From: Octopus vulgaris | Taxonomy: Eukaryota | NCBI GenBank assembly: GCA_951406725.2 | Contig: OX597818.1 | Location: 4,216,001 to 4,280,000, forward strand | Reading direction: 5' to 3' | DNA: 64,000 nt | In this document: in pieces, positions 7,126 through 58,046 of the stretch | Layout of the letters: the number at the start of each line of letters is the position of its first letter | Numbering within the stretch: the first letter of the stretch is position 1 | Made by a program: the position numbers and the translations under genes | The notes under the pieces: model-generated | What the model was told of the DNA's origin: nothing | The model's input: only the letters and a program-made list of their open reading frames with translations | Database searches by the model: none

Positions 7126-9462
7126 ATTTTTTATTAAGATAATTATTATCGTACACAGAGGGAACAAAACAGGACAATACAAACAATTATTGTTATAATG
7201 AGTTCGAATGATACTTGAATTTTTAAAATTTAGGATGATATATAATTTGACTTTTTTGGGTAAAACTTGATGAGCTGAAAAGCCCAGCAACTACACCTTT
7301 TTCTTTTTCCATGAAGATTAAGCAGGTCACTTGCACCCACCTTTCTTACCACAGCCTTCCCTCTTTTGTCAAACACACCTCGTGACAGTTGTCTCCTCTC
7401 CAGCCTTATCTTGCTCTTCAGATGATATCTGAAAAAGGTGAGCAATCCGGTGCCAGAAATGAAGGTTCCTGTTACGAGTCCTTGCAGTCTAGTCTTCCAA
7501 ACACTCTTTCAACACTGCCACTGTAAGGAAAAAACATGCCTCAACTTCCTTCGAGAGTCTGGTGGGCGGCACAATCTTTATTTTAAGATTCAGCTGATAG
7601 CTGTACTCTGCCTAGGTGTGACAACATGTGTTCAATGTAAACTATCAAACCTAAAAGTTTCCGACAGTGTATAAAAGCATAGTTTCATCATCCAGCCCAC
7701 ATCTTGGACATGTCAGTGACACTGACATTCTGTGCCTGGATAACTTATCACGAACAGGTAAAGCGTTCCTGTAGCACTGCGAGGTCAGGGATTTTTGGTA
7801 ATTATCCAAATACCCCATCCCGAAAGTCTTTTGGAACAGGTTGGTAAGTTGGTTCTCATCGAACCCCAGAGCCCCTCCAGGGACATCATCATTTTTAAAC
7901 TCTACGAGCCCTCTATACAAAACCGAGGTGGTATTACCACTGCTGGCCTTGCCCATCTGGTGGATCGCACGAGTGCCTGTTGATACTCCTTTTGCCATTC
8001 TGACAGATTGCATCTTTTAATAAAACCGGGTTTGAATCTCTCCAAAGAGGCTGGTCGCAGGAAGAATTCCTCTGCCAGCGGATTCCACACCTTGTCACCC
8101 TCCAGATAGCACCAGACATGTCTCAGCCTCAACGCATGTTTGCGCATCATAAGCCAGAGCATCCCTAACTTACCTTGTAGTGGTTCCCGGCAGCAGACGG
8201 AGCACCTTACAAGTGGCTTTCCTCCCTTCCACAAAAAGCGGAAAAGGAGGCACTCCAACTTGTTTAGCCACAAGTCAGGGCAAGGGACAACAGTTAGGTG
8301 GTAGGTGATTACAGATGCAATAAACACCTGTACCACCTCCGCCCTTCCTTTCAGGGATAGAGCCTGTCCGAACTAGAGCTTCCACCCTGTCTGCCACCTT
8401 GCTCCAATTCTTCTCCGTTTGGGAGTTCAGTCCAAACCAAACTCCAAGCAATTTAACAGGACCATCTGTCCAGTGACCCACGACACTGGATGATACCAGC
8501 TTGCTCCACCAGCTGCCAAGGCGCAAACCAATGGACCTGTCTTTGTTAACTTTTGCTCCTGCCACCACCTCGTATCCTTTGATAGCATCCTCTACACAAG
8601 GTTGCTGAGCCTCATTGGACACGATGATGGTGATGTTATCCACATAAGCAGAAACTGACTTACCACATTCTATTTCATTGGGGGTGCATCCCAAATTCTC
8701 CAACTTCCTCAGTAAAAGCTCAAGAGCCAAAATGTACAGGAGCGGGGACAGGGGACACCTTTAACAAACTGAGCGCTTGATCAAAAATGGCTCCGACAGG
8801 TAGCCGCTTATCTGGACGGTGGATTGGATGCTGCTATACATTGCGGAGATCCACCTATGGAAGTCCGGGGCCCAGCCCAGCCACTTTGAGAACTGCTGCC
8901 AAGTACTGGTGGTCTACCCTATCAAACGCTTTACTTTGGTCTAAATGGACCAGTGCCCCACCTTTGCCGGTTAATTTACACACCCTGTCTAAGGTGTAGC
9001 GTATAAGGTGAAGATTGCCCTAGATCGACCTGCCCGGAATGGCGCATGTCTGCACCTTCCCTACAAGCTTCTCCACAACATGCGTCAACCTTTTTGCTAA
9101 TATCTTGGCCAAAATCTTTAACTCTACATTCAGTCGAGTTATGGACCTGTAATTACTTATACTGTCCCCCTTGCTTGGGTCCTTCTGTATCAGCATCACC
9201 AGAGCATCACAGAGCTGGGAATCCTCCCATTCTGTTGCCAGTTTGTGTTGACGCCTGCCAGTAGGTCTCCGTACAAGTCCGGCATACTACGATAAAACTC
9301 ATAGGGTAGACCATCCAGCCCTGGCGACTTGTCCCTAACGCACTCAGCCAACACCTCTTTTACCTCCACAGGTGTAATTGGTCCTTCACAGCATTCTACC
9401 TCATGTGCCGAGAGTCGCAGCCCACCAGTGAGGAAGCTCTTCAGGGCCTCCTTACACTCCAC
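7126..9462 (-). mobile_element. 5'-truncated, frameshifted Tx1/L1-clade LINE
   Basis: ORF pieces SPGLDGLPYEFY, VSAYVDNITI, FRFLWKGGKPLV and CPRCGLDDET are homologous to ORF2 at 17834-21229. The A-rich 3' end lies near 7126. Confidence 0.9.
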
Positions 9463-13110: not shown

Positions 13111-14352
13111 AGCCAGAGGATTATTGCAGATACAAGTTTGACAGTTTCTCTGTCAGATTCCAAAAAGTAAACACCAGGAATAAAGAAGTATTATAATTTT
13201 AGGAAGGGCATGAATGTTACAACTTCTAATTTCTTCCTGTCTATGCATTTTAAACTCCATACCTAAAAAACCCTATTATTACACCATATTATGGCAGTAG
13301 AAATGCCTGAGTGAGTACAGAAACAATCTTGGTACATTAACTGCTCTAATCCAATGTCTCGGTGTCCAAATTTAAAATTCTTCCACCTTAGCTTTACTTT
13401 TCATCCTTTTGAAGTTGATAAAGTAATTACCAAAATGATACTGATATCAATTGTATCAACTGTACTTCCTTGCCTCCATCTTATAAATTAGCCATGCATC
13501 TAAGAAATACACTCTCTAAGAACACCATTAATTGTAGATGTAATAGGATAGTTCACTGTAAAATGTGAACTATCACTGTAAAATGTGAACTAAGAGCACA
13601 TAAGGGCCTTGTGTGCTCTTAGTAGTACCAAGACTAAACTCCTTCTCATCACACTTTTACCAGGGAATGAAACTTTGAAGATATACCAACAGAAACTATT
13701 TTACTGCTGACGCTGATATTAATAAAACAGAATTAAAAATAGCCACAAGGAGTAAAAGAACAATTACTTTAGGTTACAAAGTAAGAAAGTAAATGCATTT
13801 ACTTTCTAAAACCTGACAGGGAAATTTTCATTTATAATAGCAACAAATTTATGGTATATTGTGATGACAAAATGCTTTACTCAGCTGTCAGCCATCAACC
13901 AAACCTTAAAAATAAGTTTCCTATCAATATTTTTGTTTAACATAAGCCTTTACTGAATCTTGAGGATCTATAATGCCAGCACTTATCTCTGGTTTTTATA
14001 GCATTAAAGAGAACCTCAGATGATCTTCACTTATAAGATAGCAAATCATTGAAGACTTTTATTGTACAGCCATTGCTTACAATCCAGAGTAATCATGTAG
14101 AGTTAGGTGTGCTTGGTAAATGTCTTGCACATGAGCACAACACAGTGTTAAGCAACAAAAAATACTGATCTTTTGTCCAGCGCTATACTTATTTAGTTAT
14201 ACACAATAAACTGAGAAATTGAAAATAGAAACATTAAAATTCTTACAGCTGAAAGTAACAACAATCCTGGTGGCAATCAACACAAGTGGTCTAGCCAACC
14301 AATGCAAGAAAAATAAAAATAAACCTTTTCTTATCAGTACTGTTAATATCCT

Positions 14353-15292
14353 TCATACATCATAGTCTACATGGTAACTGATACACGAGAGCATAGCTGT
14401 GAAAATAGGAATAGGTTGGGCAAAGTTCAGAGAGCTCCTACCTCTGTTGGCAGCAAAAACAGCTATGCTACATAGCAGTGAAACATGGACTGTGACAGCC
14501 AAGGACATGCGTAGGCTTGAAAGAAATGAAGCCAGCATGCTTCACTGAATGTGCAATGTCAATGTGCATGTTTGACAGAGTGTAAGCATCTTGAGAGAAA
14601 AGTTGGGCATAAGAGGCATCAGATGTGATGTGCAAAAGAGACAACTGCACTGGTATGGTCAAGTGATGCGTATGGATGAGGACAGTTGTATAAAGAAGTG
14701 ACAATCACTAACTGTTGAGGGAACCTGTGGTAGAGGTAGACCCAGGAAGACATGGGAGGAGTTGGTGAAGCATGATCTTCGAACTTTGGGCCTCACAGAG
14801 GCAATGACTAGTGACTGAGACCTTTGGCAATATGCTGTGCATGAGAAAACCTATCAAGCCAAGTGAAATCGTAGTCATGGCCAATGATGGTGTCACATAA
14901 CTGGCATGTAAAAAGCACCTTCAGAGCATTGGGCCTCATGGAGGCAAAGTGGCTGATGCTGGTGGCATATGAAAAGTTCCTTTCGAGGGTTGGGCCTCAT
15001 GGAGGCAATGACGAATGACTGAGACCTTTGGCATTATGCTGTGCTGGAGGAGAAGAACCATCAAGCCAAGTAAAATTGCAGTCATGACAAATGGCACATG
15101 TGCCAGTGGAATGTAAGAGCACCCATTATATTCTCTGAGTGGTTGGCATTAGGAAGGTCATCCAGCCATAAAAGCCATGCCAAATCAGACTGGAGTCTGG
15201 TGCAGCCTTCCAGCTTACTAGTCCTGGTCAAACCGTCCAACCCATGCCAGCAGAGACAACAGATGTTAAATGATGATGATGATGATGATGAT
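14353..15292 (+). mobile_element. 5'-truncated RTE-clade LINE with (GAT)n tail
   Basis: Broken RT C-terminus (AMLHSSETW..., LHWYGQVMRM, RGRPRKTW) followed by a 3' UTR ending gttaaatgatgatgatgat. Confidence 0.85.
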
Positions 15293-15479
15293 AATAAGGC
15301 TTATTTGTTTATGATATACATAATGAAATATTCTAATACTAATGTCACTCAGTCTATGCTTCCATATGACACAAAAATAACATAAGTAGAAAAGTCAGAA
15401 ATTGGTGGTGATAAACAGTAGCAATGTGATGAATGGCATAGGTATACTACTGGAGGAAAATGAGGAGATAAAGTGACTG

Positions 15480-15770
15480 AGATAGTATGTGTAACAGAAT
15501 AATTAAACTGACTAGAGCTGGAAAATACAGCAGTGACATTTATCTCTGCATACGTTCCACAATTTGGACTGATTCCATGAAACCTTTATATGAACTACCT
15601 TGCTGAGAGATGACAGTGACATCATCATCATCATCATCATAGCTGGAGACTTCAACAGACAAGTTGGACAACATTATAAGAGATTTTGTGGTGTGCAAGG
15701 GGGTTATGTCTTTTGTTCAAGAAATGAAGATAGGAAAAGGCTCTTGGAGTTCTGTGACACTAAGGACTCA
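15480..15770 (+). pseudogene. RTE-type APE endonuclease remnant
   Basis: ISAYVPQ and IIAGDFN.QVG...RNEDRKRLLEFC motifs. Confidence 0.7.
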
Positions 15771-16037
15771 ACATTTTTCACTACTTCATCTCAAGCCTTC
15801 CTCTGTCTCACACTTCCACAGGTACATTTGAACATTTGGCACTTACTTATGCATCTGTTGTCCTCCATAGTCTTCTCATATGTTACATTTGATTTCTCTT
15901 ATATCCAGTTTGTCTTTCAGAAAAAATATAGATATTAGTATGCATTATGTGGGTTTATATGCCCTAATAGTGTCTATCTTCTGTTATCAATATACGGTGA
16001 AACCTTATCATTCTATTTACAATATTTTCACATGCTA

Positions 16038-16290
16038 AGGCGTCGAGCTGACAGAAATGTTAGCATGCCAGGCGAAATGCTTCGTCTGTCTTTACATTTG
16101 TCTTTATGTTCTGCATTCAAACGTATTTTGTCTGTCTTTACGTTCTAAGTTCAAATTCCGCCAAGATCGACTTTACCATTCATCCTTTCAGGGTTGATAA
16201 ATTAAGTACAAGTTGCGTACTAGGGCTGATCTAAATGATTGCCCCCCCCCTAAAAATTTGGGGCCTTGTGCCTAGAGAAGAAAAGAATAT
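16038..16290 (+). mobile_element. tRNA-derived SINE with Meta/MESC-like core
   Basis: B-box-like agttcaaattcc followed by ttcatcctttcagggttgataaattaagtac. Confidence 0.65.
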
Positions 16291-17833
16291 TTTCATTTGC
16301 TACTCTTTCCTAATTCATGCAGAATTCACACATGTTTACACATTTACTGCAATGAAATCATAGTTCCTAAATTTAAGGGTAAAAATAAAAAGTGTAGGTA
16401 TGATGGTATAATTAGTCAGTATACTTATTGCAAAAATAAGAGGTGTGAGTTTGATTCTCATGCATACTATGCTTATTTTATTCATTATGTGGGTTTATAT
16501 GCCCTAATAGCAGACTATTTTCTATAGTCAATATACAAAGCTTATAATTCAATTTCCAAGATATATATATATACTAGCATTATGACCCGTCGTTGCCGGG
16601 TCATAGTGCTAGTACATGTATATATGTGTATATATATGTGTACATATTACATGTACATCTATATATATACATCTACACATAAAATACAAAGTTATATCTT
16701 GATATCGCTAGTGATAACAATACTCCAAATATATAACAGACTGGAATTGTAAGCCCGTCTCTTGCAATTTTGATCAATTGTATCTTGTCCTCCCTCTTGT
16801 ATAGAAGTGTGGCTACAATCTAGCCTACCTCTACTTCTGGTGGGGGGATCATTTTAAATTTTTATCTGGCATGTCCTACATCCCAGATATAAAGGTAAAA
16901 ATAAAATATTTCCACTTTGCAAGTTCGAGTCGAATACTCCCTTGCACGCTCCATTGACTCGAACCTTGCTTCTGTTGTGGCGAATTTATCGCTTCTGGTT
17001 AGATATCTTTCATAGTCGCACCAAGACACTTTTCGATGGTGCTTTCCTCCAGGTGTTCAAATCTTTTTTCTCTACATTGTATACTTTATAGACAACTAGC
17101 ATTAAAGACCCGTCGTTGCCGGGTCATAGTGCTAGTGCATGTATATATGTGTATATATATGTGTACATATTACATGTACATCTATATATACACATCTACA
17201 CATAAAATACAAAATACAAAGTTATATCTTGATATCGCTAGTGATAACAATACTCAAAATATATAACAGACTGGAATTGTTAGCCCGTCTCTTGTAATTT
17301 CGATCAATTGTATCTTGTCCTCCCTCTTGTATAGAAGTGTGGCTACAATCCAGCCTACCTCTACTTCTGGGGTGGGGGAGCATTTTTAATTTTTTTCCAG
17401 GACGTCCTACGTCCCAGATATAAAAGGTAAAAATAAAATATTTCCACTTTGCAAGTTCGAGTCGAGTACTCCCTTGCACGCTCCGTTGACTCGAACCTTG
17501 CTTCTATTGTGGTGAATTTACCGCCTCTGATTAGATACCTTTCATAGTCACACCAAGACACTTTTCGAAGGTGCTTTCCTCCATGTTGTTTTATTATTAC
17601 CCACAAGGGGCGAACATAGATGGGACAATACAATCTGATGATGGGGTCAGATAAATGAATGGGTTTTACAACAAAGCGAATTTTAAAAATTTACAGAAAA
17701 ATTACAAAAATAGACAGAAATCGAATGTTGGAACAGACCGGAAGACATTACGGGTGGAGTGGGAGTGGGTTTAGCTCGGACCCCACGAGCCCCGCCTCCC
17801 CACTGATACTTTTGGTTTCGTTTGGTTTTACAT

Positions 17834-20800
17834 TTATGTTGTATCATTCACTCGCAACTTTCGTGCTATATCTTTCCATCTTTCTTCATACACTCTCTTA
17901 GTCAGGCATATTCTCTCCAGCCCTATCTTCCTTTTCAGGTGAAAGATGAAGTAATTCATCAAACCAGGGCCGGAGATGAACTTGCCTGACTGTAAACCTT
18001 TCATTCTCGTCTTCCATATCACCTCTTTCGCAATTGCTACTACAACGAGAAAACGAAACTTACCTTCATTCGCGAGGAAATCCGGTGGGTCAATTTTTGT
18101 AATCGACTCAGTCGACAGCTGTACTTTTCGTGTACTTGACAACAGCTGTTCGGCATAAACCCACACCTCAGACACGTCCGGACAATGAACAATAGCGTGC
18201 GGGACGGTTTCCCTATCCCGCCCGCATCTTGGACATATCGGACTGTCTTGGCCACCGTGCCTTGCGAGTTTATCCCGAACAGGTAGAGCTCCTCTGTAGC
18301 ATTGCCATGCCAGAGACTTCTGGAAATTGTCCAGTGTCTTCGGCTTGAACGTACGTCGGAACAGACTGGCCAGCTGATTATCGTCGAGACCTAGATATTC
18401 CCCCAAGGTATCTTCACATTCCGCCTCTACCAACCCTCTATAGAAGAATGTGGTGGAACCCCCACCGCAGGCGTTGCCCGAGCGACGGAATAGCAGGAGA
18501 GCCTTGCGACACTCCGTGTACCAAGTACCAAGTTTCGATCTACGATTCAGCCAGGTTTCCCATCCACCGAAACTAGTGAACTTGGGAAACATCAGTTTTG
18601 CTAGCGGAGACCACACCCGTTCACCATCCAGGTAGAGCCACAGATGTCTTAACCTCAGCGCATGTCTGCGCATCATCAGCCAAGGCATCCCTAGCCCACC
18701 CTTTAACGGTTGTTGACAGCAAGTAGAGCGTTTCACTAGTGGTTTCCCGCCCTTCCACAAGAAGTAGAAGAGCTGTCTTTCCAACTTGATTAACCACGAA
18801 TCAAGGCAAGGAACGACGGAAAGGCGGTAGGTGATAACCGATGCGATAAACACATTGGCCACCTCTGCCCTCCCTTTCAGGGATAGCCACCGTCAAGACC
18901 AGGTCTTGGTTTCTGTAGCCACCCTGCTCGATACCTCGCCCCAATTCTTCTCTATTTGGAGGTCTGGACCGAACCAGACCCCTAGCAATTTAATCGGACC
19001 CTCCGTCCAATGTCCCACGACGCTGTCAGGAGGCATCGACTTGCCTCTCCAGGTGCCGAGTTGCAAGCCGACTGACTTTTCGCGATTAACTTTTGCTCCT
19101 GTCACCGTCTCGTAAACCTCTATGGCCTTGCCTACTTTACGTAGGTGGTCCATTTCGGTTACGATGATGGTGATGTCATCCGCGTACGCTGACACCGATT
19201 TTCGACTACCTGGCTGTCTCGGGATGCCGCTCAGTTTTCGCAGTAATGGCTCAAGAGCCATCGCATACAAAAGCGGGGAGAGCGGACACCCTTGACGAAC
19301 CGAGCGCTCGATTTTGAACGGCTTCGACAAGAAGCCGTTCACCCGAACTACCGAGTCGATGTTATCATAAATTTGGATAATCCACCTGAGGAAGCCAAGG
19401 CTCAGCCCGAACTGTGCCAGAGCAGATACCAGGTAACGATGGTCGACCCTATCAAATGCTTTAGATTGGTCTAAATGGACCAGAGCCCCACCCTTGCCAG
19501 AATCGTTATTAAACCCCTCTATAGTGTACCGCATAAGATGGAGATTATCCTGAATGGTTCTGCCAGGAACGGCACATGTCTGTGCCTCCCCGATCAGACC
19601 ATCCGCGACACGCGCCAATCTTTTCGATAACACTTTGGCCAAAATCTTCAACTCCGTGTTTAGCAGAGTGATGGGCCTGAAATTATCAATGCACTCCCCC
19701 TTGCTCGGGTCCTTTCTGACGAGTGTCACTACTCCCCGGCGCACAGATCTGGGTATAAGCCCGTTCTGCTGCCAGTTCGCATAGACCTCCGCCAGTAGGT
19801 GCCCGAACAAGTCTGGCATACTCTTATATAACTCATAGGGTAGACCATCCAAACCCGGCGCCTTGCCTGCGCCGCAGTCCGCCATTGCCTCAACCACTTC
19901 CTCAGGCGTGATTGGCCCTTCACAGCCCTCCGCATCTCGCCCCGATAAGCGTGGCAGCCCGTCGAGTAGGTCCGTAAAGACCCTCCTCCTATCCAGTCCG
20001 CCGCACTCACCGAAAAGCTGAGCGAAGTGCTCCTGAAAGGCCTCACACGTCTCCTCGGGCTCGTTTATCAACTCACCTTGTTGGTTCGTCAAAGATCGAA
20101 TCGTGGCATCGTTACCATGCTGAGCTTCCACCACTCGGGCCCATCTCATGGCGTTGATTCCTTCACAACCCATATGGCGGATCCTAGCCCTGACAATGCA
20201 GCCCATGTGTTTGGCCTCGAGGTGCTGGTTTAACACCAGTCTCTTGGACGCCACCTGAGCCGCAGAGCCAGTTTTCAAGGCTTCCTCTAATTCCTTAACT
20301 AGAGTAGTTTCCCTTCTAGCCTCTCTAGCCACTACTCCTATGCTATATCTAATTGACTCGAACTTGATGGCTCGTTTGAGGGCGTACCACCATTTGTTAT
20401 TAATGATGGTACCAGATAGTGCCCTCTGAATTATATTCCTAATCCAGTCTTTGTACTCCTTAATCGCCAAAAGGGACGTATTAAGTTTCCAGTAACCGGA
20501 TCCTCTATTTTTAACCTTATCTATGTCAAGCTTACAGGTGACCATTTTATGATCACTGTAGCTGATCGGGTAAAACTGTGGACACTTAGCTATTTTTCTG
20601 TCTACTTTTCTAATTAGTATTCTATCTAAATATGACCTGGAAGATCCGTCGCTGTTTGACCATGTCCACAATGGAGCGTTCGGAAATTCCAGCCTATAAG
20701 GATCTGCTAGCTCAAAGCGGCTTAGCAGTTCCATGAAGCCACTGTTACCTTTTCTATCTGAACGCGAGCCAACACAATCTACATCCGCTTTGCAAATTGT

Positions 20801-21229
20801 GTTAAAGTCTCCTAGCACAACTAATGAATGCGAAGTACCAAGAAAGTTTTCTAGTTCACGAAAATAATCACTTTGCCCTGTACTGTTGGGTGCGTAAATT
20901 GCAACCAGTCTGATAACTTTACCGTTACTGAACGTCAAATCCATGACGACCAGCCTACCTTCTGGATCTGCAAAAATTAACTTTTTCTCAGAAACCCGGT
21001 TTCTTTTTATTAGGACCAACACCCCACTTCCACCAGTAGGACTGCCAGGAGAGAAAAAACTCTCGTAGCCGTCAAACAGCGGGAGTAGACCTCTTGGCCC
21101 CTCTAACCGGGTTTCTGTAGCAACAATAACATCTAAATTACGCGACCTGTTATCATGCAGGAAGCGACCTTGCTTCCAGCCTGCTCCCAGGCTGCGCACA
21201 TTCAAACAACCAACATAAATGCAATCCAT
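17834..21229 (-). CDS. LINE ORF2: APE endonuclease, reverse transcriptase and C-terminal zinc finger (one frameshift near 18890)
   Basis: LNVRSL, ATETRL, LGDFN and YSDH (APE). PGLDG, FRPITLLN, LDQSKAFDRV, VRQGCPLSP and AYADD (RT). CPRC...ETVPHAIVHC. Confidence 0.92.
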
Positions 21230-21238
21230 TACTTACCT

Positions 21239-23338
21239 TTATATCAGTGGTTCGGTTTTCTCTTTTTCTTTTTTGTTTAACTCTTTTTCAGGGCCTCGTG
21301 GGGGAGTCTGACGTAGGCCCTCGAATATATGTGGAGATGTCACATCCATTCTAAGTGGGCCTACGTCATGGAAGAATTCGGACTTTATCCGCCCGTAATC
21401 CTTCCGGCCTATTCTGTAAACTACATAGTCGTTCTTTTTCCCTATTTTCTCTACTTTGGCCATAGCTGCCAATACGTTCCCGAGTCTGTTGTTTGATGCC
21501 TTAACGGCCATATATGAGTTCATCGACTCTCTTTTCTTTTTTAAGTTCACTCTGGGAGGGGTGGTTTCCGTTTTTCTTTTTTTTCTGGTGATTTTTGCCC
21601 ACCCCTCCTCATTTTTCTTTTCCTCGCTCTTATTTTCCTCCGCCGCTGGTTCTGCTGTCTCCGTCACCTCCACACCTTCAGTCATCCCTTCTGGGCCGCC
21701 CAGCGCTGCTTCTGGTGACACTTTATCTTCTTTTCCATCTGGTTGAGGTGCTTCCTGCGGTTTGGGTTGGGGTTGGCATTCTGCCCTTACATGACCCTTC
21801 TTGCCGCAGCCGAAGCACCTCGGCTTTCTGCCCTCCACGAAAACTGTTATTCTCTCTTCACTTATTTTTAAAGTTTCTGGAATCTCCTCCAGTGTTTGAA
21901 CTTCCGCCTGAATGGCTATTACTATTTTCTGCCCTTTCCAAAATTCCTCTTCCTCCACTGTGGCCTGGAGGAAAAAACAAACATCCTCCAGGCCACAGTG
22001 GAGGAAGAGGAATTTTGGAAAGGGCAGAAAATAGTAATAGCCATTCAGCGGAAGTTCAAACACTGGAGGAGATTCCAGAAACTTTAAAAATAAGTGAAGA
22101 AGAGAGAATAACAGTTTTCGTGGAGGGCAGAAGCCGGGTGCTTCGGCTGCGGCAAGAAGGGTCATGTAAGGGCAGAATGCCAACCCTAACCCAAACCGCA
22201 GGAAGCACCTCAGCCAGATGGAAAAGAAGATAAAGTGTCACCAGAAGCAGCGCCGGGCGGCCCAGAAGGGACGACTGAAGGTGTGGAGGTGACGGAGACA
22301 ACAGAACCAGCGGCGGAGGAAAATAAGAGCGAGGAAAAAAAATGAGGAGGGGTGGGCAAAAATCACCAGAAAAAAAAAAACGGAAACCACCCTCCCAGAG
22401 TGAACTTAAAAAAGAAAAGAGAGTCGATGAACTCATATATGGCCGTTAAGGCATCAAACAACAGACTCGGGAACGTATTGGCAGCTATGGCCAAAGTAGA
22501 GAAAATAGGGAAAAAGAACGACTATGTAGTTTACAGAATAGGCCGGAAGGATTACGGGCGGATAAAGTCCGAATTCTTCCATGACGTAGGCCCACTTAGA
22601 ATGGATGTGACATCTCCACATATATTCGAGGGCCTACGTCAGACTCCCCCACGAGGCCCTGAAAAAGAGTTAAACAAAAAAGAAAAAGAGAAAACCGAAC
22701 CACTGTGGCCTGGAGGATGTTTATTTTTTCCTCCAGGCCTACCATCACTGCTGCCACCAGACATTCGGCATCTGCCTCTGGGGGAATGTTGTTCATCGTG
22801 ATTCTCGATGTTCTTTTCCCTCTATACAAGGGAGGAGAACAATGTTCTCCGCTTTAATCGGCTCCATAGATAGTTTTTTTGCTATCTCCTCTGTAGTAAA
22901 ACGCACCTCCACTGTGCCGTATCTCTTTCCTCTGTTAATGTAAGTTATCTTGTCCATTAATGGTTTTAGACAATTCTCTATTTTTTTTTCTTCAGTTTTT
23001 TGTATCATTTTTGTCATCGTGTTAAATGTCTTATAGATTATTCTTTGTTTTTCTATTTAATCGTGTTTTTGGACGTTTGTGACCACTGTCACTTCCGTGC
23101 CCTCTTTTGTGACACAGTCCGCATATTTTTTCAAGTCTTCCACGTTTATTTTTTTGATCTTTTTACCGGCCACTTCAGAGAATTTTTTTGCTGGAGCTGG
23201 TGCTGGTGCTGGGTTTTCCTTTTTCTTTGGCGACATCGCTTCTTTTTTCTTTGGCGACACCGCCTCTTTTTTCCTTGGCGACATTGCCGGAGACTCCTCT
23301 TCACTCGTCACGGGAGAATAAGAGATGGGGGACTCCAT
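21239..23338 (-). pseudogene. LINE ORF1 (RRM-like plus CCHC knuckle), disrupted by frameshifts and an inverted duplication
   Basis: Starts MESPISYSP at 23338. Contains RYGTVEVRF, SRITMNNIPP and RCFGCGKKGHVRAEC. Stop at 21239. Confidence 0.85.
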
Positions 23339-23562
23339 CTCGAACAGTTGGCTTAACAAGCCCTTGGTAACTTCAAGATGAATGATATTTTTCCCCCACG
23401 GAGGGGGGAACACCAACGCGAAGTCCTCGCGTGAAGGCTGACTTCGACAGTTAGACAGCAATAGACAAAAACAGGTAGACAAACAGTAGAGAATAACAGA
23501 GATAATAATACGACGGCAAAAATATATTAACTTACAATAAACGCAAATAGCTTTTCTCCATG

Positions 23563-25210
23563 TTATTTCTTTATTACCCACCAGGGGCTACGAAGATTGG
23601 CTTACATAACAAAACATGGGGGACATAGAACAAAATGATTAAATTTATGAGCAAATGAATATTAAAATGAAAAAATGATAATATGAAAGCGATGCTAACG
23701 GCCCCTCCGCCAGCATCACTTACCTGTCCTTTTGTTTTCACTGTCACCTGAATGTTCATTCCCAATACGTAGACCATCCATATCCATTCTTACTCCGAAA
23801 TACTCCTCCATATTTTCCACGAATTCATCGCTCATCCTTGTATCTTTCACCTCCCAATTCTCCCTTTCACACCTCAACACAAACTCATCTATATTCTTAT
23901 TTTCCAGCACTGCATATCTGGTCTCACCTATTTCATACCATTTATACTCTTCCATTACCCTTTTAACTTCTTTCTGTTCAGTCATAATATAAATGTTCGA
24001 CCTGGGTTCGTTTTCAAACTCTTGTCTGTCTGTATTATTTTTTTTCTTTTGTTTTCTTGTTGGAGGGGAGCGGGTGGGTTCACTGTCTGCAGGGATAGGG
24101 TGGGTCTCAGAGGGTGTGGGTGGTGTTGGGGTGGATTGGTGTTCTATGTTATTTTCTTTTCCTCGTATTCTCCTCTTCCTCTTATTCCCAGCTTCTTTCC
24201 ATTTCTGTGAATTCTCTTCTTCTACTGTCTCCTTCTCCTCTGGTTTCTGCTTCTCTCTCTGTGGTTCGGAATCCATTTCTTTCACTGGGGGAGGGCAGAA
24301 GGCTCTTATGTGACCCCTCAGGCCACACTTGTAACAACGTGGGGCTCTGCCCTCCACCCACACTCTCATGATCACGTCTCCCAATCTGATGCTTTCCGCC
24401 AGGTCCACCAGTACTTCGTTCTCTGCCTGCACGTTCAGTTCCACTGTTACGCCTCTCCAGCCCTCGGTCTTAACCGGGCATGGAGAATATCCACTTCCTC
24501 CTCGTGGCCGCTAATCACAGCCGCCACAATCCACTCGGCCTCAACGTTTGGTGGCACTCCCTCCACCATTACTCGTGTAATCCTTCTATTTAGATATGTA
24601 GGCAAAAGAGTTACCTTCTCGGATTTCACCGCCTTCGCCGCCATCTTCCTTGCTGCATTCTCACTTTTAAACTGTACCACTACAGTACCATACTTTGATC
24701 CTCGAGTCAGAAAATTAATTTCCTCCTCCGTTCTTCTCAGCGCCTCCTCTATCCACTCCATGTTTACAACTTCTATCTTCTTCCTTTCGTTTGCGAACAC
24801 CCTGTATATAATGGTCCTTTTATCATACCATTCTTTTCTCTTGGGTGTCGGTGCTAGTTCGACCTCACCGCTATCCTTTTTCATATATTTCTGGTAACTT
24901 GGCAGCTTGGCCAAGTCCACCCCTTTCTCTTCCGCCTTCTTGGTTACACCGGCATAGGTATAACCCAGCTTTCGATCCATCATTCTCACTGCCTGTTCCA
25001 GTTCCTCCTCAGACGTAGACAAGTCTGATAGGGAATCAAAGTCCATTTCCTTCTGTCTGACAGACCGAAAACGCCGCCCGAACAGAAAAAGTGTAACTCG
25101 TAGAACCAGTGTAACGCGAAACCGCATCAACGACGTTCAAAATTTCCACAACAACAACAATACTTTTTGTTCTTTTTTCTTTTTTAACCGAATTTTACAG
25201 AGCGCAAAAA
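23563..25210 (-). mobile_element. ORF1-only (HAL1-like) non-autonomous LINE relative, ~1.65 kb
   Basis: ORF1 at 25046-23716 (one frameshift near 24470) is homologous to the neighbouring ORF1 (KYGTVVVQF, TRVMVEGVPP, RCYKCGLRGHIRAFC). There is no ORF2. The 3' motif CCCCT.GTGGGTAATAA and the 5' motif TTTGCG..TGTAA are shared with the full LINE. CCATG flanks both ends. Confidence 0.8.
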
Positions 25211-27414
25211 ACCATGACCGACGGTGTGAAAATCTTCTTTTTTCTCTACATTGTATACTTTATAGACAATAGTCTTTTCTTTAATTTAATTTTTTATTAT
25301 CCATCTGGACTATTCTATTTCTGCACTCCCGGACCCTAAGTAAGGCATGTGTAAAATTTGAATGAAATTGGTTGTGTAGTTCTCAAGTTTTAGGGAAACA
25401 CACAGACACACATTCTCAGTTTCATATATATATCTAAAGATAGTCTTTTCTTTAATTTAATTTTTTATTATTCATCTGGATTATTCTATTTCTGCACGCT
25501 AATTTTATTTTTAATTTATTCCCATTCATGTGAAACCACTTATTCAAGTTCAAGTCATTGATGCAATTTTATACCAATTGCTATTTTTTACTTTTGTTAT
25601 GTTACGATTATATTATATTTTGGTTTGATTTTAATTATTACTTACTACATATAATTCAATTGTTATTATTATTTTTATTGTTAAAGTGAAAGTATCTGAC
25701 ATAAAATAGAGAAATGTTTTTGTTTCACTTTTAACACGTAATACTGAAATAGTGGAGAAGATATAATATTGCTATGGGCTCGCTCTAGGCAAGAAGTTGG
25801 ACATTTTTTTTGCCCATGACACTCCCTGGACCCTAAGTAAGGCATGTATAAAATTTGAATGACATTGGTTGAGTAGTTCTCAAGTTTTAGGGAAACACAC
25901 AGACAGACAGACAGACAGACACACATTCTCAGTTTTATATATATATAAGTACACTATACACACGTACAGATATGGATACATCCCTACACACATGGATACA
26001 TCCCTCAGAGCACAAAGATTCACCCAACCAGACACATACAGAGATCACATCAACACTACCATCATGGAGCACATGCACACGCATACAGGTGCACCCACAG
26101 ACACTCTCACACAGGCACACTTACACCCTCACACAATGCTCACAGACCCACCCCCATACACACGTGCCCCTTCACACTCACACATATACATTAACATGTG
26201 CTGAGTGGAAGTCTCTGGTGTGTACCGATATGTACATGTGTATATCTGTGTATGAATGTGTGTGTGTATAATTGTGTTAGTGTATAAGTGTATTTGTCTG
26301 CAGACTGTGAGACTGTGGGTGTCAATGTACATTTGGATTTGTATGTCCTGTGGTGTGGGTGTGATGGGGCGCGTGAATGAGGTTTTGATACTGTGTTTAA
26401 CACATATTTTCTTAACCTTATATCTGACTTTATGTGTGTGTGTGTGTGTGTGTGTGCGCATGCGCATATGTTCCTTATGGATTTGAAAACTGAGTTGCTG
26501 ATTTTGGCGCATGAGGTATCAAAAGATTCAGTAATCTTTTGGCTACCAAATAAAGTTTTATGCACAACAACTCTTTTTTACTACAAAAATAACCTCAAAA
26601 ATGAGGTTGGGTTGCACAATTTTGAGGTCTTTAGTTAAGGGAGGCAACTCTACCTGAACAATCTATGTCTTAGATAGAGCATATGAGAAAATACTTAAAA
26701 TACAGGAGTTTTACCAGAGAATAAAACTTTGAAGATATACCATCAACTTTATTAGTATTATTTCGTAGATAATCTTTTAATGTGAAGTATGTTTGTCTGT
26801 CTTTTGTTTAGCCCAGAGTTGCCTCTGATGTAGCAGACCCGTCACATAGTTTTTTTTCTTTCTGAAATACTCTAAATCTGTGTCTTTCTTTCAATGAAAG
26901 GGTGTGTTTTAAGAGAGATTTGGCAGCTATTTGAAGTAGCTCAAGTTACCACAGACACACCTGTGTGTATGTTTTGTTGTGGTGAAAAAAATACTTTTTT
27001 TTAGAATATTTTGCACAAAGATTTTTTAAAGAAATCTTTCTTACTGCTAACCATTCAACTTCAAATTACAATTGTTAATTGTTGGAAGTCAAGGATATTG
27101 AGATGTACATATAGTGCGATTGTATAGAGTGAAAGTTTAATATAAAGTTTTGAACTCATTATCTTGTGGTTAGTATTACATCACCTTAAATTTGAAGCCA
27201 TTAAGTCCTTAAACATTATTTTACTGGGTTTAGTCTTTCGACTGTCGCCATGATGGGACGTCACCTTCAAAAATTTAATTGATCATATTGACCACAGTAC
27301 GTATTTCAATCTGGTATTTATTTTATAGATCTCTACTTGATGAACTGCTAACTTTGAGACATATGGGACACAATACTCAATTTAACAACAAATGTAAAAC
27401 ACACATATATTAGA

Positions 27415-27560
27415 TGCAAGAAGGACTGCAGTTAAGGAGATTGCTTCCCAACCACATGGCTCCATATTCAGTCCCTCTGCATGGTACCTTGGGCAAGTGT
27501 TTTCTACTATAGCCCTAGACCAATCACAGACTTGTGACTAAATCTTATAGATGGAAACTG
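27415..27560 (+). mobile_element. Partial SINE of the same family as 29283-29680
   Basis: caaccacatgg...cagtccc.ctgcatgg.accttgggcaagtgt...gatggaaactg. Confidence 0.65.
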
Positions 27561-27689
27561 CAGCATTGTTCATCAGAAAATGTCCAAAAAACATGTTTAT
27601 AAAGAAGAGTTGTTTGTTTCATACTCCTTGTGTGCCAATTCTGTCCATAAGAAAGGAACAAATAATACAATGTGGCTGTAGATCATAAC

Positions 27690-27717
27690 ACCCGGGCAAT
27701 GCTAGGGTGCACTGCTA

Positions 27718-27718
<1 letters not shown>
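27690..27718 (+). mobile_element. Helitron-type 3' terminus (5' end not located)
   Basis: cccgggcaatgctaggg...tgCTAG followed by T. Similar to the ends at 29847, 36500 and 53387. Confidence 0.6.
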
Positions 27719-27762
<44 letters not shown>

Positions 27763-27765
<3 letters not shown>

Positions 27766-29012
27766 GGGTTGGACAAAATAATGGAAACACCTAGCATTAT
27801 AACGTTGAAATATCTATAAAACCATCAAAAGCTTGTTTATTTTCATGGTTTTTATTTATTTATTTATTATTAGTGTTGCTTAATATGTTTTGCTAAAATT
27901 GCTGTTTCTTTTCAGATATCATCAGAAAAAGTAATTAAAATTCATTAAAATGACAGATCTATTGGACTTTCAAAGAGGTCAAATTGATGGTGTTCATATG
28001 GCAGGCACTAGCATAACAAAAACAGCCAAAATGTTTGGTGTATCAAGAAGTACTGTCTCAAAAGTAATGTCAGCCTTTGAGAAAGTGGGAAAAACTGCCT
28101 TGTCGAAACAAAATTCCAGAAGAAAACCAAAACTTTCAGACAGGGACTGTCGGACTCTTATGCAAATTGTTAGATAGGATCGCTAAAGTACAGCTCAAAT
28201 AATACTGTAGAGCTTAATGACCACCTCGAGAACCCAGTTTCCATGAAAACTGTTTGCAGAGAGCTGCACTAAACCGGATTTCACGGGAGAGCTGTAATCA
28301 GAAAACTACTACTTTCAAAAACAAACATTGCTAGGCATTTAGAGTGGAATAAAAGCCCACAGAATTGGTCCCTAGAGCAGTGGAAGAATGATATTTTCTC
28401 AGACAACCCGTCCTTTACCTTATTTCCAACCACCAGCCAAGTATACATGTGGAGACAGCCAAAAGAAGCATTTGACACAAACTGCCTTCTTCTAACTGTT
28501 AAACATGGAGGAGGATCTGTGATGATCGGGGGGGGGGGGGGGGCTATATCTTGGAAATCCAACAGAATTAATAGTCAAGACTATTTAAGCATTTTATCAA
28601 ATCCATCCTATGGTTGTGGAACTGTTTCCAAAGGGACATGCAATCTTTCAGGATGATAATGCGCCAATTCACACAGCTAAAGTTGTTACTGAATGGTACG
28701 AGGAACATTCTAGTGAAGTTGAACATCTTGTCTGGCCACCACAGTCCCCAGATCTCAATATTATTGAACATTTATGGTGCATTTTAGAAAAACAAGTAAG
28801 GGGTCGATATCCTTCACTATCATCATTACAAGAATTGGAAACTATTTTAGCTGAAGAATGGACAAAAATTCCTTTGAAAACAATTCAAACTTTGTACGAG
28901 TCCATACCTCATAGAATTCAAGCTGTAATTACTGCCAAAGGTAGTCCTACTCCATATTAAAATAAATTTGTTTGAAATTGTAAGGTGTTTCCTTTATTTT
29001 GTCCAACCCCTG
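27763..29012 (+). mobile_element. Tc1-like DNA transposon with DD36E spacing (Incomer-like), defective
   Basis: ~30-bp TIRs CAGGGGTTGGACAAAATAATGGAAACACCT with TA TSD, 1250 bp. Transposase pieces at 27950-28960: HTH N-terminus, TVKHGGGSVM, FQDDNAPIH and WPPQSPDLNIIE (36 residues between D and E). Confidence 0.92.
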
Positions 29013-29165
29013 TATATATGATTGTGTGTGTGTGTCTGTATTTTATATATACATACATATATATATATATATATATCATCATCATCATCATCATCATTTA
29101 ACATCCGCTTTCCATGCTGGCATGGGTTGGACAGTTTGACTGAGGAGTGGCATATCAGGAGGCTG

Positions 29166-29200
<35 letters not shown>

Positions 29201-29282
29201 CCAGTAATTATTAAAATATATAATGTAGAGCGACTCTACGTTATATATTTTAATAATTACTAGTATTTTTATATTTTTATGT

Positions 29283-29680
29283 AAGGAGTGGCTGTGTGCT
29301 AAGTAGCTTGTTTATCAACTACATGGTTCCGGGTTCAGTCCCACTGCATGGCACCTTGGGTAAGTGTCTTCTGCTATAGCCTCAGGCCAACCAAAGCCTT
29401 GTGAGTGGATTTGGTAGATGGAAACTGAAAGAAGCCCGTCGTATGTATGTATGTATATATATATATGCGTGTGTGTGTTTGTGTGTCTGTGTTTGTCCCC
29501 CTAGCATTGCTTGACAACCCATGCTGGTGTGTTTATGTCCCCGTTACTTAGCGGTTCAGCAAAAGAGACCGATAGAATAAGTACTGGGCTTACAAAAGAA
29601 TAAGTCCCGGGGTAGAGTTGCTCGATTAAAGGCGGTGCTCCAGCATGGCCACAGTCAAATGACTGAAACAAGTAAAAGAG
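29283..29680 (+). mobile_element. tRNA-derived SINE with a CR1-like LINE-derived 3' tail
   Basis: A box tggctgtgtgct and B box ggttcagtccc, an internal microsatellite, and a tail ggcggtgctccagcatggccacagtcaaatgactgaaac matching the LINE 3' ends. Confidence 0.85.
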
Positions 29681-29846
29681 AGAAAGAGAGAGATATATGT
29701 AAAGCATAAGTTATACATGTATGTATATTGTTATAATGGTTTGTTTTTTTTAAATAAATAAATAGACATAATATAATGTCTAAAAGTTGATGAATACAAC
29801 CTCTTGATCCCCTCCATTTTCTTATTGCTAAATAATTATATATATA

Positions 29847-32800
29847 CTAGCAGAGATACCCGGCATTGCCCGGTTACATTCAATTGAAGAATTAGACTTT
29901 TCTGTTATATATATATGGATACACACACACACACATATATATATATATATGTATATTAATATAAATACATGAAAGTACATGAAGTTTGTTAAAAAAAAGG
30001 GGATCATGTATATACCTTCTGGCTGTTGAGATTATAACACCTCGTAAACAATGTTCCTTGTTTTTCCTTGTGGGGCATATACAAAAAGGTTTCTTTTGGT
30101 TCCTACTCTTGAGCAGCCAACATAAAGTTGCCCATGCGAGAAGCAGGGCTCTTCCAAGAGAAGACCAGCTACAGAGAGAGTTTGACTCTGAGATTTGTTA
30201 ATGGACATGGCAAAGCTGACACGAAAGGGGAATTGCAGTCTTCTGAATGTAAATGGAATTTCTGCTCCTGATGGAGTAAGAGGAATTCTTGGAATAAAGA
30301 CGTCATCACCTTTTCCACATCCAGAAAGAATGATCGCCTCGATAACGTGTGACATCATTTTCTTTATCACCAGTCATGTTCCATTGCAAAGTCTTGGTGG
30401 TTCCAGATTGCGGAGTAGCATTACAGGAGTTCCGACTTTAAGTGCTAATATGTGTGGAGGTAGTCCAGGAGGCTCCAGTTAATTGAGAAATTCAGGAGGA
30501 TAGTTCACAACTTCATTTATATCTGGAATTGTATCAACAGACTTGTAAGTGTGTATAGTGCCAGAAGAGAATGCATTAGCTGTTGATTAATTTTGCTAAC
30601 AGTGACGTTTTTTGGAGCTAATATTGCTCTTTCACACAGCCAATTGTGATTTTGGTAGTTTTGTGTGAAGTTGGGAAAGACTTTGTTTTTGATGTCATCT
30701 ACAGAATTAACAACAGAGGAAAATGACCACACTTCCATTTGTCCTGCAGCATCGAGAGGCATCTTGCCTTCACCAAGTGTCAAAATGTCCTGTGCAAACT
30801 TTGTGGACATTTTGTCGCCATGTAGCTGAGCTCTCATGTTAGTGGTGAGACTGAGAATTGTAACATGATGCCACAGGGTAGAGGACTTTAGGCATGATTG
30901 GACTTCATCTGCTCTAGTGCCTTTCAGAATGACAGGAAGAGTTTACTTGAAATCACCTGACAACAGAAGCGTTATACCTCCCATTGGAGCCTGACAGTCT
31001 CGGATGTCTTTCAGGGCTCTATCTAATGCTTCTAAAGCTCCCTTGTGAGTCATAGTGCACTCATCCCAGACAATTAGATGACACATTTTAAGTACTTGTC
31101 CCTGATCTGAACTTTTGTTGATGTTGCATGAAGGCATTTCGGATGCTGCTAAATTGAGAGGGAGTTTAAAAGTTGAGTGTGCTGTCCTGCCACCGGGTAA
31201 CAAAGTAGCTGCAATGCCAGAGAAGGCTACAGCTACTGCAATGTCCTGATGCTGCCTAACTTCTGCAAGGAGAAGCTTTGTAATAAATGTTTTTCCTGTC
31301 CGTCCAGGAGCACCGAGGAAGCAGATTCGTCCCTCGCGTTGGCGTACACTGTTAAGAATAGTTCTGTAGGCCTGCAGCTGGTCCGGAAGTAATTTAGGCT
31401 CATTTTCAACAATGTACTTTGAAAGCGCTTGAGTGTCGTAGGTTATTTCATGAATGACAGCAGTGGGAAGGCTATTTGATCCTGACCTGAATGCTTGTGG
31501 CAGGCCATACGTCGACAATTCATTTCCACCCAGTTTAGCAATTCTGTCTTCAATGTCAATGAGTGTTTTGTTATAGATTTCATTGCTGATACCCTCCATG
31601 TCAGGATAGAGCAGTTGAGCTTGGCGCTGAAAGTCTTCAGCCAGGTTGTCTCTATATTTGAGCCATAGAGTGGCTGGATCACACAGTTCACATGCCTGTA
31701 GTAATACTGCAAATAGTGCCCTGAGACTTTTAGGTGATTGTGATAAAGCAGCCTCTCCTAAAGTTGCATACCATTGTGCACCATCTTCTAACAGACCTTG
31801 TCGATAGCAGGTTTCTCTGTATGTTGTGCAGACATGTCCATGAACGGTTTTTAGGGCCGGGAAAGACGTTGGCCCTCTGACCTCATACAGTAGTAGACGC
31901 AGGTAGAAGCACTCTTGTTTAGTGGGATGTACTGTGTATACTCGCCCAAGGCAAGTGTGAAACTTAATGCCAAGGTATCCATGAACATTTTGACCTGCTT
32001 TCCGTGGGGCCCATTTTTTTCCATTCCAAGTGTAGTACGATGGAATCTGTGGATACAGCAAGGTTTGAGCAAATGGATCCACTTGACAAAGCTTGAAGAA
32101 TGCAGTGAGTGTGCTATCCCTTGGTTCCTCTGCCAACAGAGAAGCATTAGCATCAGTGAAGTACACTCTTTGACCATTTTCCAGGTGCACTGCAAACTGT
32201 TGAATGGCGGGGTGTCGTTGGTGAATTGGAAAGCCAAAGATGCGCTAGAAAGCCTCCTTGCTACATATGTACCGTCCCACCTGATAATGCATCACCTCAT
32301 CCTGGCAGTATTCTTGTTGAAGTCCAAACATTGCAGCGTCAGAACCCTTGTTTACATATTTGAAAACGTACTTGATGGATTTAACGGAGTTGCAAAACTC
32401 AACGTTGATGTGAGCATTGAAAGTCTTTGACAGGAGTGGGCAGTATGGAACAATCCATCTATTATCAATATCGTGCTGTCCGATAGTTGCTGTGAAACCT
32501 CCGTCTTCTGGTTTTCTGCGTCTGTATGATGATTACCCATCAGCACCTGTCTGAGTTTCTTGTAGGAACCTCCTTGGAAATCTTTTTGAACATATGCTGT
32601 CTTTCAAGCATAGTGAGTTTATGTTGAATCCACGCCCACATGGACCATGTACCATGTTTGCTTTAACTATTTCGTATAGTTCTTTGTCTAAAGCTGGATC
32701 AGGAAGCTCTGCAGAGATTATCTTGTTGATGTCATTGGAATTGATCTTCACTGAGAGCCAAAGCAGGATATGAGCATGTGGAAGGCCCCTTTTTTGCCAC

Positions 32801-35336
32801 TCGATTGTGTACATGTCACATTGTATGGGCCCAAAGACTTGCCCTTTTTGTATGAGCTCCATGAGAGAAATTAACTTCAGATGGAAAACTCGGACGAGGA
32901 GGTCATACCTGTCTTTAGGCTTTTGACTGAAGAAGAGTTCGGCCTGAATCTCCTTCCACTTGGGATTGCATGTGGAAGTTATGAATAGGTCAGGCCTGTT
33001 TTAATGGCGGACAAAGGTCATTGCATCCTGTGTTCTTTCATGCATGTATCGGGGACTTCCAGTGAATGTAGAAGGCAAGATGCAAAGTCTTCCTATGTTT
33101 GTTGGAGCAGCATCATTGTTGATGGCATCTCGGAGATGGATGTAGCTGTCAGATCGCAATTTTTTTTATGTAACCTGATGAAACACAATCTCTCTGAGAC
33201 TGGTGGAGGTGATTACAGCAGTTGTTTCAGGTCATAAATTTGTATGAGTAGAAGTCCATGCAGGATATTGGCTTGTTGAGATGTTCATTAAGATTTTGAG
33301 GATGTTGCTGTAGTAGACCGATGTGGTAGTATCCTCACCGTTAATAAACAGAAGTGAGTATTGGAGTGAATCGTATGATCTGTGTGTTTCACTAATTTGT
33401 TGGAGGGTGGTGTCACATCGCCTGAGAACAATGTCTCTAGGATTGTGCTGTTCACCGTGAAGGAGTACAGCTATTTCATTGCATGTGGGTGCATTGTAAC
33501 GGCCTGCATGTTCCCTAGATGGTCTTTTCGGGGCATCAATGATAACATTAAAATTTGATGAATCTTCTGTTTCCAAGGTATACTTGAAGCTGCGTATGTA
33601 CCTGTTTTTCTGGTGCAAAAGGTCTTGCAGTTGCATTATCAAGTGAAAGTTAGTACCTGTGGAAATGGAATTTCGTCGGGTGGCTTGTTCATGTAAATTA
33701 CCTACAAAGTACAGTTGAAGGAATTGAGGATCTTGATTTTCAGCAGGTTCAAGTGATCGTATCCTATGGTAAACCTGTCCCTGCACTTTGAAAGTTAGCA
33801 TAAACCCGCCTTCTTGAACAAGATTAGCGCCGAAAGATGTCATTTGGAATGCACAATTGTACTTCTGGATGTTATTCAGGAAATGTTTTGACTCTGTAGT
33901 TGATAAGGTAGCATGTGGTAAATATCTGTTACCATCATCCATTGTCCCATAGTGAGAAGTAAGTTTTATTTCCCTGTGTTGGGAATGAAATGAGAATGAG
34001 ATGTAAGAGGACAATGTTTTTGAGATTCCGGTTCGAATGTAAGGCAGGTTTGAAAGTGTTCCCAACAGTTATTAGCTGTAGTGGTAGAGTGTTTATGCCG
34101 AATATGTACGTATGCATGTATATATATATGTATGTATGCCTGTATATATGTACAAAATCCACTGAGAAGGCTTTTGTTGGTCTGAGGCTACAGCAGAAGA
34201 CACATACCAAGTCACCACACAGTGCAACTGAACCCAGGACCATGTGCATGGAATGTAGTTTGTTACCACACAGTCACACCTGCCCCTATGTATGTATGTG
34301 TGTGTGTGTGCATATGTGTGTATGGGTAGATATATTATGCATGTATATATGTGTGTATATATATGTGTACATATTACATGTACATCTATATATATACATC
34401 TACACATAAAATACTAAATACAAAGTTATATCTTGATATCGCTAGTGATAACAATACTCAAAATATATAACAGACTGGAATTGTAGGTTCATCTCTTGCA
34501 ATTTCAATCAATTGGATCTTGTCCTCCCTCTTGTATAGAAGTGTACGGCTGCAGTGAAATTCATTTTTGGACTTTCTTCTATCGAAGGCATTTTAACAAA
34601 AATACTTCCGTAAAGACGGTGAAAATATTGTCAATTTCCCCAAACAGGGACACAATTCAATTTTTAAACAATAACCAAAGCCCCTTCTCCGAAAGGGGGA
34701 GGGTTACGGATTACAATTATTTAACAAATGCAACACAACAACGTTTCCCTGATGAGGAACCAACAAACATGATTACAATAGTCAAACAGTAATAATAATA
34801 ACAACAAACCTTTTTAATTTATCCCCATTTATGTGAAACCACTTATTCAAGTTCAAGTCATTGATGCAATTTTATACGAATTGCTAATACACACACACAC
34901 ACACATAATAATGGTGAAAAATTGAAAATTAATTAGATTAATATGAATTGAAAACCAGTGGTGTAGCATATAAGACCATAGCGGATCTTCTTCTAGCAAA
35001 ATGGATGACCACTGTTAATGGTTCATTCCTGTTATGTAATACTTTCACTTTAATAGTTTCAGTATTAAAGTGAAAGTGTCTGCATTACAATACAGAGATG
35101 TTTTTGTTTCACTTTTACCACATAATACTAAAATAGTGGAGAAGATATGATATTGCTGTGGGGTCACCCCAGGGAAAAAGTTAAAAAGTTAAAAGTAAAA
35201 ATTTTTGCCGATGACACGCCCCAGACCTTAAGTAAGGCATGTGTAAAATCTGAATGAAATTGGTTGTGTAGTTCTCAAGTTTTAGGGAAACACACAGACA
35301 GACAGACACACATTCTCAGTTTTATATATATAGAGA
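29847..35336 (-). mobile_element. Formerly autonomous Helitron
   Basis: 5' TC at 35336 and 3' hairpin (ccgggcaatgccggg) plus CTAG at 29847, inserted between A and T. Contains the RepHel sequence. Confidence 0.9.
30032..34065 (-). pseudogene. Helitron Rep/PIF1 helicase, multiply frameshifted
   Basis: KYNCAFQMTSFG, FKVQGQVYH, EWQKRGLPHAHILLW (HUH), [50 protein letters not shown] and FSHGQLYVGCSRV. Confidence 0.95.

Positions 35337-55077: not shown

Positions 55078-58046
<2,969 letters not shown>

Follow-up and report, generated by a model that had tools for sequence, protein, structure and literature searches.

How two different retroelements came to lie, in the same orientation, at a single base of a Helitron is the question raised by this locus of Octopus vulgaris. 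The window is the whole stretch of DNA that was analysed, 64,000 nucleotides of contig OX597818.1. Positions are those of the window, and ^ marks an insertion point or an element boundary.

Elements and host repeat in the window

The two elements, A and B (Table 1), both lie on the minus strand at one base of the Helitron, and both 3′ ends (CCCCTNGTGGGTAATAA and an A-rich tail) adjoin CATGGA, as the first-pass annotation had proposed. Pfam domains were found in ORF2 of A (Exo_endo_phos, 2.5e-13; RVT_1, 1.6e-31; zf-RVT, 1.3e-9), and its closest solved relative was L1 ORF2p (1e-55). Element A is called Tx1-like from its architecture; named Tx1 families were absent among its homologues. Frameshifts disrupt its ORF1, as does an inverted duplication of the 3′ half (21245-22705 self-complementary). 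This fold-back measures 1.47 kb, its arms are 97.7% alike with differences that are mostly indels, and it was seen in none of the other A copies fetched; it is either a real event or an assembly artefact. The CCHC knuckle of ORF1 is visible by eye and scored under the Pfam cut-off (zf-CCHC, E 0.04-0.05). Another Tx1-like LINE, 5′-truncated and with a different 3′ end, lies at 7140-9400 and is 67% identical to ORF2 of A.

ORF1 of B (25046-23716) contains one frameshift near 24476 and a CCHC knuckle, and no RT family was matched by B in the domain search. The element is multi-copy, about 1.65 kb long, with fixed ends, ORF1 only and a shared 3′ tail, all of which are HAL1-like features, and its truncated copies carry target site duplications (TSDs), a hallmark of retrotransposition.

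Table 1. Positions and strands of the features at the nested insertion locus
Feature	Position	Strand	Remarks
Outer Helitron copy, 3′ part (CCTGG subtype, empty)	16574..17095	-	ends hairpin-CTAG^T
Inner non-autonomous Helitron, 3′ part	17096..17585	-	hairpin 17107-17125; terminal CTAG 17096-17099
Captured, frameshifted ORF1 fragment of a related LINE	17230..17585, continuing ~25224-25285 (approximate limits)	-	ORF1 HMM
Site 1, inside captured ORF1 fragment; unused site 2 (CAA^TTCCAGTC)	site 2 between 17277 and 17276	-	
Element A, full-length Tx1-like LINE	17586..23549	-	~5.2 kb minus its duplication; 3′ tail GTGGGTAATAATAAAACAA
ORF2 of A (APE endonuclease, RT, zf-RVT)	17834..21229	-	single in-frame stop 18890-18892
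ORF1 of A	21233..23338	-	CCHC knuckle; RRM-like region by reading of sequence
13-nt slot CATGGAGAAAAGC	23550..23562	-	target-like leader/TSD mosaic at A 5′ end; probable landing site of B
Element B, ORF1-only, 1.65 kb	23563..25210	-	tail GTGGGTAATAAAGAAATAA; without RT or endonuclease
B 5′ leader (CCGTCGGTCATGG) and upstream variant TTTTCACA	25211..25231	-	
Inner Helitron, 5′ part	25224..25440	-	A^TC at 25440
Upstream motif TATAAAG and purine tract	25258-25264 (TATAAAG)	-	41 nt ahead of cut
Outer Helitron copy, 5′ part	25441..25946 (approximate end)	-	

The host has a 5′ TC, a 3′ CTAG with a hairpin just upstream, and insertion at A^T without a TSD, as a Helitron should; the host copies sampled mostly start at A^TC and finish with hairpin-CTAG^T. 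In the window, the 3′ part of the inner Helitron starts with the downstream flank of the target, CATGGAGGAAAGCAC. The inner copy (17096-25440) is nested at A^T, without duplication, in an outer, empty copy of the CCTGG type that has no CCATG (16574-17095 and 25441-~25946). The host is therefore a non-autonomous Helitron, and the sequence at ~17040-17095, described earlier as an uninterrupted tandem copy, is the outer element around it.

An 18-mer from the right flank of the host had 1,113 exact matches in the 2.8 Gb genome searched. Of these, the first 30 were inspected as a positional sample, and 25 were empty, reading GATTTGAACA^C[A/C]TGGAGGAAAGCACC; the true empty site is GAACA^C[A/C]TGGAGG (…GAAGATTTGAACACATGGAGGAAAGCAC…). 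A deleted host variant, missing ~295 bp, had at least 149 matches, with a plain empty join in 10 of 12 sampled. The origin of the target was examined with an ORF1 profile (HMM) built from eight family members. On 25 empty hosts it scored a median of 45.7 bits, against a maximum of 7.2 in 250 shuffles, and the target therefore lies inside the captured, decayed ORF1 of a distant relative. Single tblastn HSPs between the host and ORF1 barely beat shuffles (26.9 vs 24.6 bits), and the profile test was decisive. The best amino acid identity of the captured ORF1 to current ORF1s was 34-44% (13 loci compared), and its donor was not found among the ORF1s of these loci.

The host was also considered as an RNA gene and rejected: Rfam models run on 14000-30000 gave nothing at gathering score, and the top match reflects the ORF1 palindrome. 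A related Helitron copy at 34338-35332 has the same ends and a different internal segment where the target would be. The window further contains a broken Tc1-type transposase (28273-28960; DDE_3, E 1e-13) and a tandem array of a 381 bp unit (55193-58046; 7.5 copies, 99% identical).

Occupancy of the site and independence of the insertions

Searches with exact patterns detected at least 125 occupied junctions vs at least 341 empty CATGG sites, both lower bounds. The proposal of site-specific insertion into an abundant Helitron is borne out by these junctions and by the independence of the inserts (below), but its CCATG motif and its oligo were mis-specified. The host had been thought to resume at 25211; positions 25211-25223 are the 5′ leader of B, the host resumes at ~25224, and the nicking oligo proposed across this point is thus a chimera.

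A census of flanks by the 3′ motif common to both elements had been suggested as the check. It returned 25,924 matches, and 30/30 of those sampled were a SINE with mixed flanks, so the census would have wrongly counted against targeting. This very abundant SINE (window ~16030-16295; L031-L060) carries the 3′ tail of the LINE clan and often stands in tandem at GGTA/TTTCGTC within itself. Family-specific probes were used instead and gave 278 A/D-type and 59 B-type ends, D being a 1.77 kb ORF1-only group. All 59 B ends were viewed: 30 lay on the host site and 21 on the next family member's leader, and 8 were dispersed (hand tally). For the A/D type, regions were taken for the first 100 of the 278, and 97 ends were recovered, with three unclassified rows reassigned by hand. 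Of the 48 LINE ends, 21 were at site 1 and 4 at site 2 of this Helitron; a further 3 lay on leaders, 7 fell within a second AT-rich repeat, and 13 were dispersed. Among the D ends, 46/49 were at a site or on a leader. Since 13/48 LINE ends are dispersed, the specificity is a strong preference and not absolute. Directly on the Helitron were 25/48 LINE ends and 30/59 B ends; both shares exceed the >20% of flanks in one sequence type above which Kojima calls a LINE target-specific (PMC4494074).

The insertions form head-to-tail arrays of up to ~11 units, and their make-ups include H-D9-A-A′-H, H-D6-H, B-B-D′-D′-A-H and H-B-A-H. The second AT-rich repeat, an unclassified one with a mariner fragment (L216, L222, L224, L229, L238, L244), holds sites 3 and 4 of sister LINEs; the insertion points are CCA^ACTGAATACTC and, a few tens of bases upstream of it, another site. 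Beside this repeat lies what we take to be a PIF1-type helicase fragment (L298:561-1040). Other lineages (L285/L300; L254, L271; L274) have fixed ends in the host Helitron, before AGAGCTAAC, CAATGTAGAG and ATGGATAA.

The same occupancy could be produced if a few founder insertions had been carried along as entire Helitrons multiplied by rolling-circle copying. Two observations point that way: the top 40 matches of a junction query, itself biased, all crossed the junction, and of 22 left junctions of B, where a GGTCGTG/GGTCGCG-like core is seen again and again, 13 had a single form, AAAAAWGGTCG[C/T]G. For the INDEPENDENCE test, 95 host flanks were compared. Distances were calculated for 33/36 A rows, mostly from the junction-biased search, and 23/25 B2 rows, truncated or very divergent rows being left out. 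Near-identical inserts sat in hosts 4-6% apart: the nearest A inserts differed by 0.1-0.2% and their hosts by 4.0-5.2%, and the nearest B2 inserts by 0.1-0.3% and their hosts by 4.1-5.6%. The centred Mantel correlation between insert and host was close to zero (r -0.09 for A, -0.02 for B2); the raw test, prior to removal of the per-copy mutation load, gave a weak positive correlation in B2 (r 0.40, p 0.02). On the host tree, which is poorly resolved, the 36 A-occupied rows required 25 changes and the 25 B2 rows 22. Occupied hosts were not monophyletic, were scattered over the tree and belonged to both host subtypes, and array make-up, truncations and host deletions varied by locus. CATGG was present in 60/69 occupied hosts and CCTGG in 19/26 empties, an excess that fits preference or age. 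Given the near-identical inserts in divergent hosts, the centred correlations and the number of changes on the host tree, hitchhiking is not the main route, and multiplication from a few founders is very improbable. Nor does the Helitron appear as a vehicle, as had been suggested, since there is no co-phylogeny of insert and host by the centred Mantel test and the occupied hosts are not monophyletic.

The reading preferred here, held with a probability of roughly two in three, is that the Tx1-like LINE and several ORF1-only families repeatedly and independently hit one Helitron base, likely through local sequence together with an upstream cue at a fixed distance.

Junction structure and choice of target

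The slot at the 5′ end of A had been described as a 13-bp TSD. It has one mismatch, and in full-length copies the slot holds lineage-specific leaders (e.g. CGTGTCGGAAATC and CATGGCTCCAAGC), so that it is better described as a mosaic of target and leader. The leader of full-length copies is 13 nt long and its bases 4-13 recur by lineage, whereas base 2 tracks the local host allele, in 5/5 CCTGG arrays vs 2/15 CATGG arrays (by slots, 10/10 in the 5 CCTGG arrays vs 2/30 in the 15 CATGG arrays). TSDs of 5′-truncated copies are ~14-17 bp (one 7 bp) and start at the base right after the tail, and the CAT or TT at dispersed sites is therefore target-derived. Across the genome, the upstream variant that the window carries, TTTTCACA, was occupied in 5/6 of its matches. 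Full-length LINEs made up 28/33 at repeat sites vs 1/10 dispersed (hand tally with 5/48 LINE ends not scored; Fisher p 3e-5). The sole full-length dispersed LINE landed on a site resembling its own leader, and the L234 junction fits growth of an array at its upstream end.

According to the mechanism that we propose, ORF2p would nick at YA^CAT(G), ~40 nt behind the TATAAAG/purine tract of the host, and would prime reverse transcription on the shared GTGGGTAATAA tail. ORF1-only RNAs would borrow ORF2p in trans and so take over its site; such mobilisation is suggested by the shared tail and the shared sites. Element RNA may start in or just before the duplicated target, in which case the cDNA end would pair with the target at the 5′ junction. 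This pairing would leave the mosaic leader, favour full-length insertion at the repeat site and renew the landing site, allowing arrays to grow. The >1,000 occurrences of the target would go back to a piece of a relative's ORF1 that the Helitron captured and then amplified.

Could the element RNA itself guide the nick, leader or tail pairing selecting the site for a largely non-specific endonuclease? The leader of every lineage resembles the target, and the leader-like site of the single full-length dispersed LINE agrees with such guidance, but 5′-truncated copies (L181, L198, L239, L269) are still at the site, and the B leader is little like the target even though B uses site 1. D-like elements at sites 1, 2, 3 and 4 have leaders to match, as would be expected if the mobilising ORF2p passed on its site. 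Guidance by the RNA is accordingly improbable.

When 30 copies are compared, their endonuclease sequences group according to target, with residues WSSG/NSQKQ/DGSIRS at site 2, RGG/NSTKQ/DGSIRS at site 3 and NSTGH/DGSSRS at site 1. The diagnostic S/I position aligns with T200 of L1 in the bB6-bB5 loop, a hairpin loop that in L1 inserts into the minor groove (PMC1950540). These links come from few copies that share ancestry (3 site-2, 5 site-3), and there are two exceptions: L239 is at site 1, yet has a mosaic endonuclease with part of the site-2 type, and L222 is at site 4, yet has a site-1-like endonuclease. Among dispersed copies of the site-1 type with a TSD, 5 started at ^CAT, one at ^CAA and one at ^TCAG; dispersed copies of the site-2 type started at ^TT. 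Although both host variants contain site 2, its use was seen only in the deleted one (8/8 left junctions; 6 vs 0 matches of a genome-wide pattern in deleted and long hosts, respectively). There it lies 39-41 nt behind TATAAAG, site 1 lying at 36-43 nt. This confinement of site 2 use to the deleted host might also reflect pairing of donor cDNA upstream, with loss of ~295 bp from a long host.

The constant distance raises the possibility of tethering to a transcription start, with the TATA-like motif of the Helitron serving as a promoter, ORF2p cutting near the start and the elements then being transcribed from it. The spacing of ~40 nt behind TATAAAG is fixed in both host variants, the leaders and the TTTTCACA variant suggest an RNA start near the cut, and two junctions in the second host lie 38 and 41 nt behind TATTTAAA (hand count). 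This spacing, however, exceeds the ~30 nt usual between TATA and start, TATAAAG belongs to the captured coding sequence (YKVY), and three site-3 junctions are ~70 nt behind the TATA-like motif. Moreover, TATA[AT]A occurred at -45 to -25 in 0/11 dispersed sites with a defined upstream flank. Contigs of four presumed-RNA runs span parts of B and the host, and neither start nor strand is readable from them. In a related case, Kojima 2015 suggests that SINEU may be transcribed from the flanking Mariner (PMC4494074). On balance, tethering to a promoter is a rather unlikely explanation.

Independent targeting of one base through local sequence and an upstream cue may be part of a wider pattern, which we put forward tentatively: the APE LINE clan would target by position behind a captured motif or promoter, loop changes would set the cut, and leader landing sites would build the arrays, with the clan re-aiming along with its host. 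In that event, LINEs and their ORF1-only partners would self-assemble into arrays at hundreds of loci.

Relation to known targeted retroelements

R2 is site-specific in 28S rDNA, and target-derived 5′ sequence likely helps to form its 5′ junction. The elements described here resemble R2 in site-specific insertion and in target-derived 5′ sequence, but have an APE instead of a restriction-like endonuclease and a transposon instead of an essential gene as the target. Co-transcription of R2 is mentioned in PMC4494074.

According to the text of the same paper, piggyBac, Mariner, Harbinger and LTR elements are all targets of Tx1 elements, and both SINE partners and insertions in tandem are described (PMC4494074). 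The cases include Tx1L in Tx1D (Xenopus), Tx1-Mar and SINEU in Mariner-N4_AMi, Tx1-9_AMi in Harbinger, and Tx1-8_Crp and Tx1-4_AMi in LTR elements. As in the Tx1L/Tx1-Mar group described there, the preferred site of an APE LINE lies within another transposon and is shared by non-autonomous partners, sequential insertions in tandem flank a TSD, and hitchhiking is excluded. Unlike that group, the host is a Helitron with the site inside the captured ORF1 of a relative, the partners are protein-coding ORF1-only families and not SINEs, arrays reach ~11 units, and near-identical sister LINEs are at different sites.

HAL1 (half-L1) is likewise an ORF1-only, non-autonomous LINE derivative that encodes ORF1p only and shares the 3′ end of the autonomous element (PMC5753468); HAL1 derives from mammalian L1, whereas here several families are concentrated at one site, in arrays. 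For HeT-A/TART/TAHRE of Drosophila, arrays are described in which RT-less and RT-encoding elements follow one another head to tail, all in one direction (PMC5537684). The arrays found here differ in being internal and dispersed, in needing an endonuclease nick, in making TSDs and in having no known host function, and they show that ORF1-only elements can form HeT-A-like arrays outside telomeres.

The word Helitron does not occur in the main text of PMC4494074, and a recent annotation of octopus repeats includes active L1-Tx1 and Helitron families, in passages that do not describe targeting (PMC13282606). A literature search found no Helitron-targeting Tx1, although Repbase Reports, subscription papers and the supplements of PMC4494074 and PMC13282606 may hold one. 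Tx1 targeting of DNA transposons and ORF1-only LINEs are known already; new here are the Helitron host, to which Tx1 transposon-targeting is extended, the origin of the target, the arrays and the target switches.

How APE-type retrotransposons change target is an open question with a use in gene insertion. Loop grafts in the L1 endonuclease moved nicking only partly (PMC1950540). Over ORF2 DNA, the sister LINEs at other exact sites are 92-98% identical to A of the window and a handful of endonuclease residues differ, so nature supplies matched variants, and the LINE and its sisters likely constitute a natural test set for target choice. Among the ORF2 starts checked, 4/34 were open for at least 1,129 aa, including copies at sites 1 and 3; if targeting is indeed positional, these would make APE retargeting directly testable.
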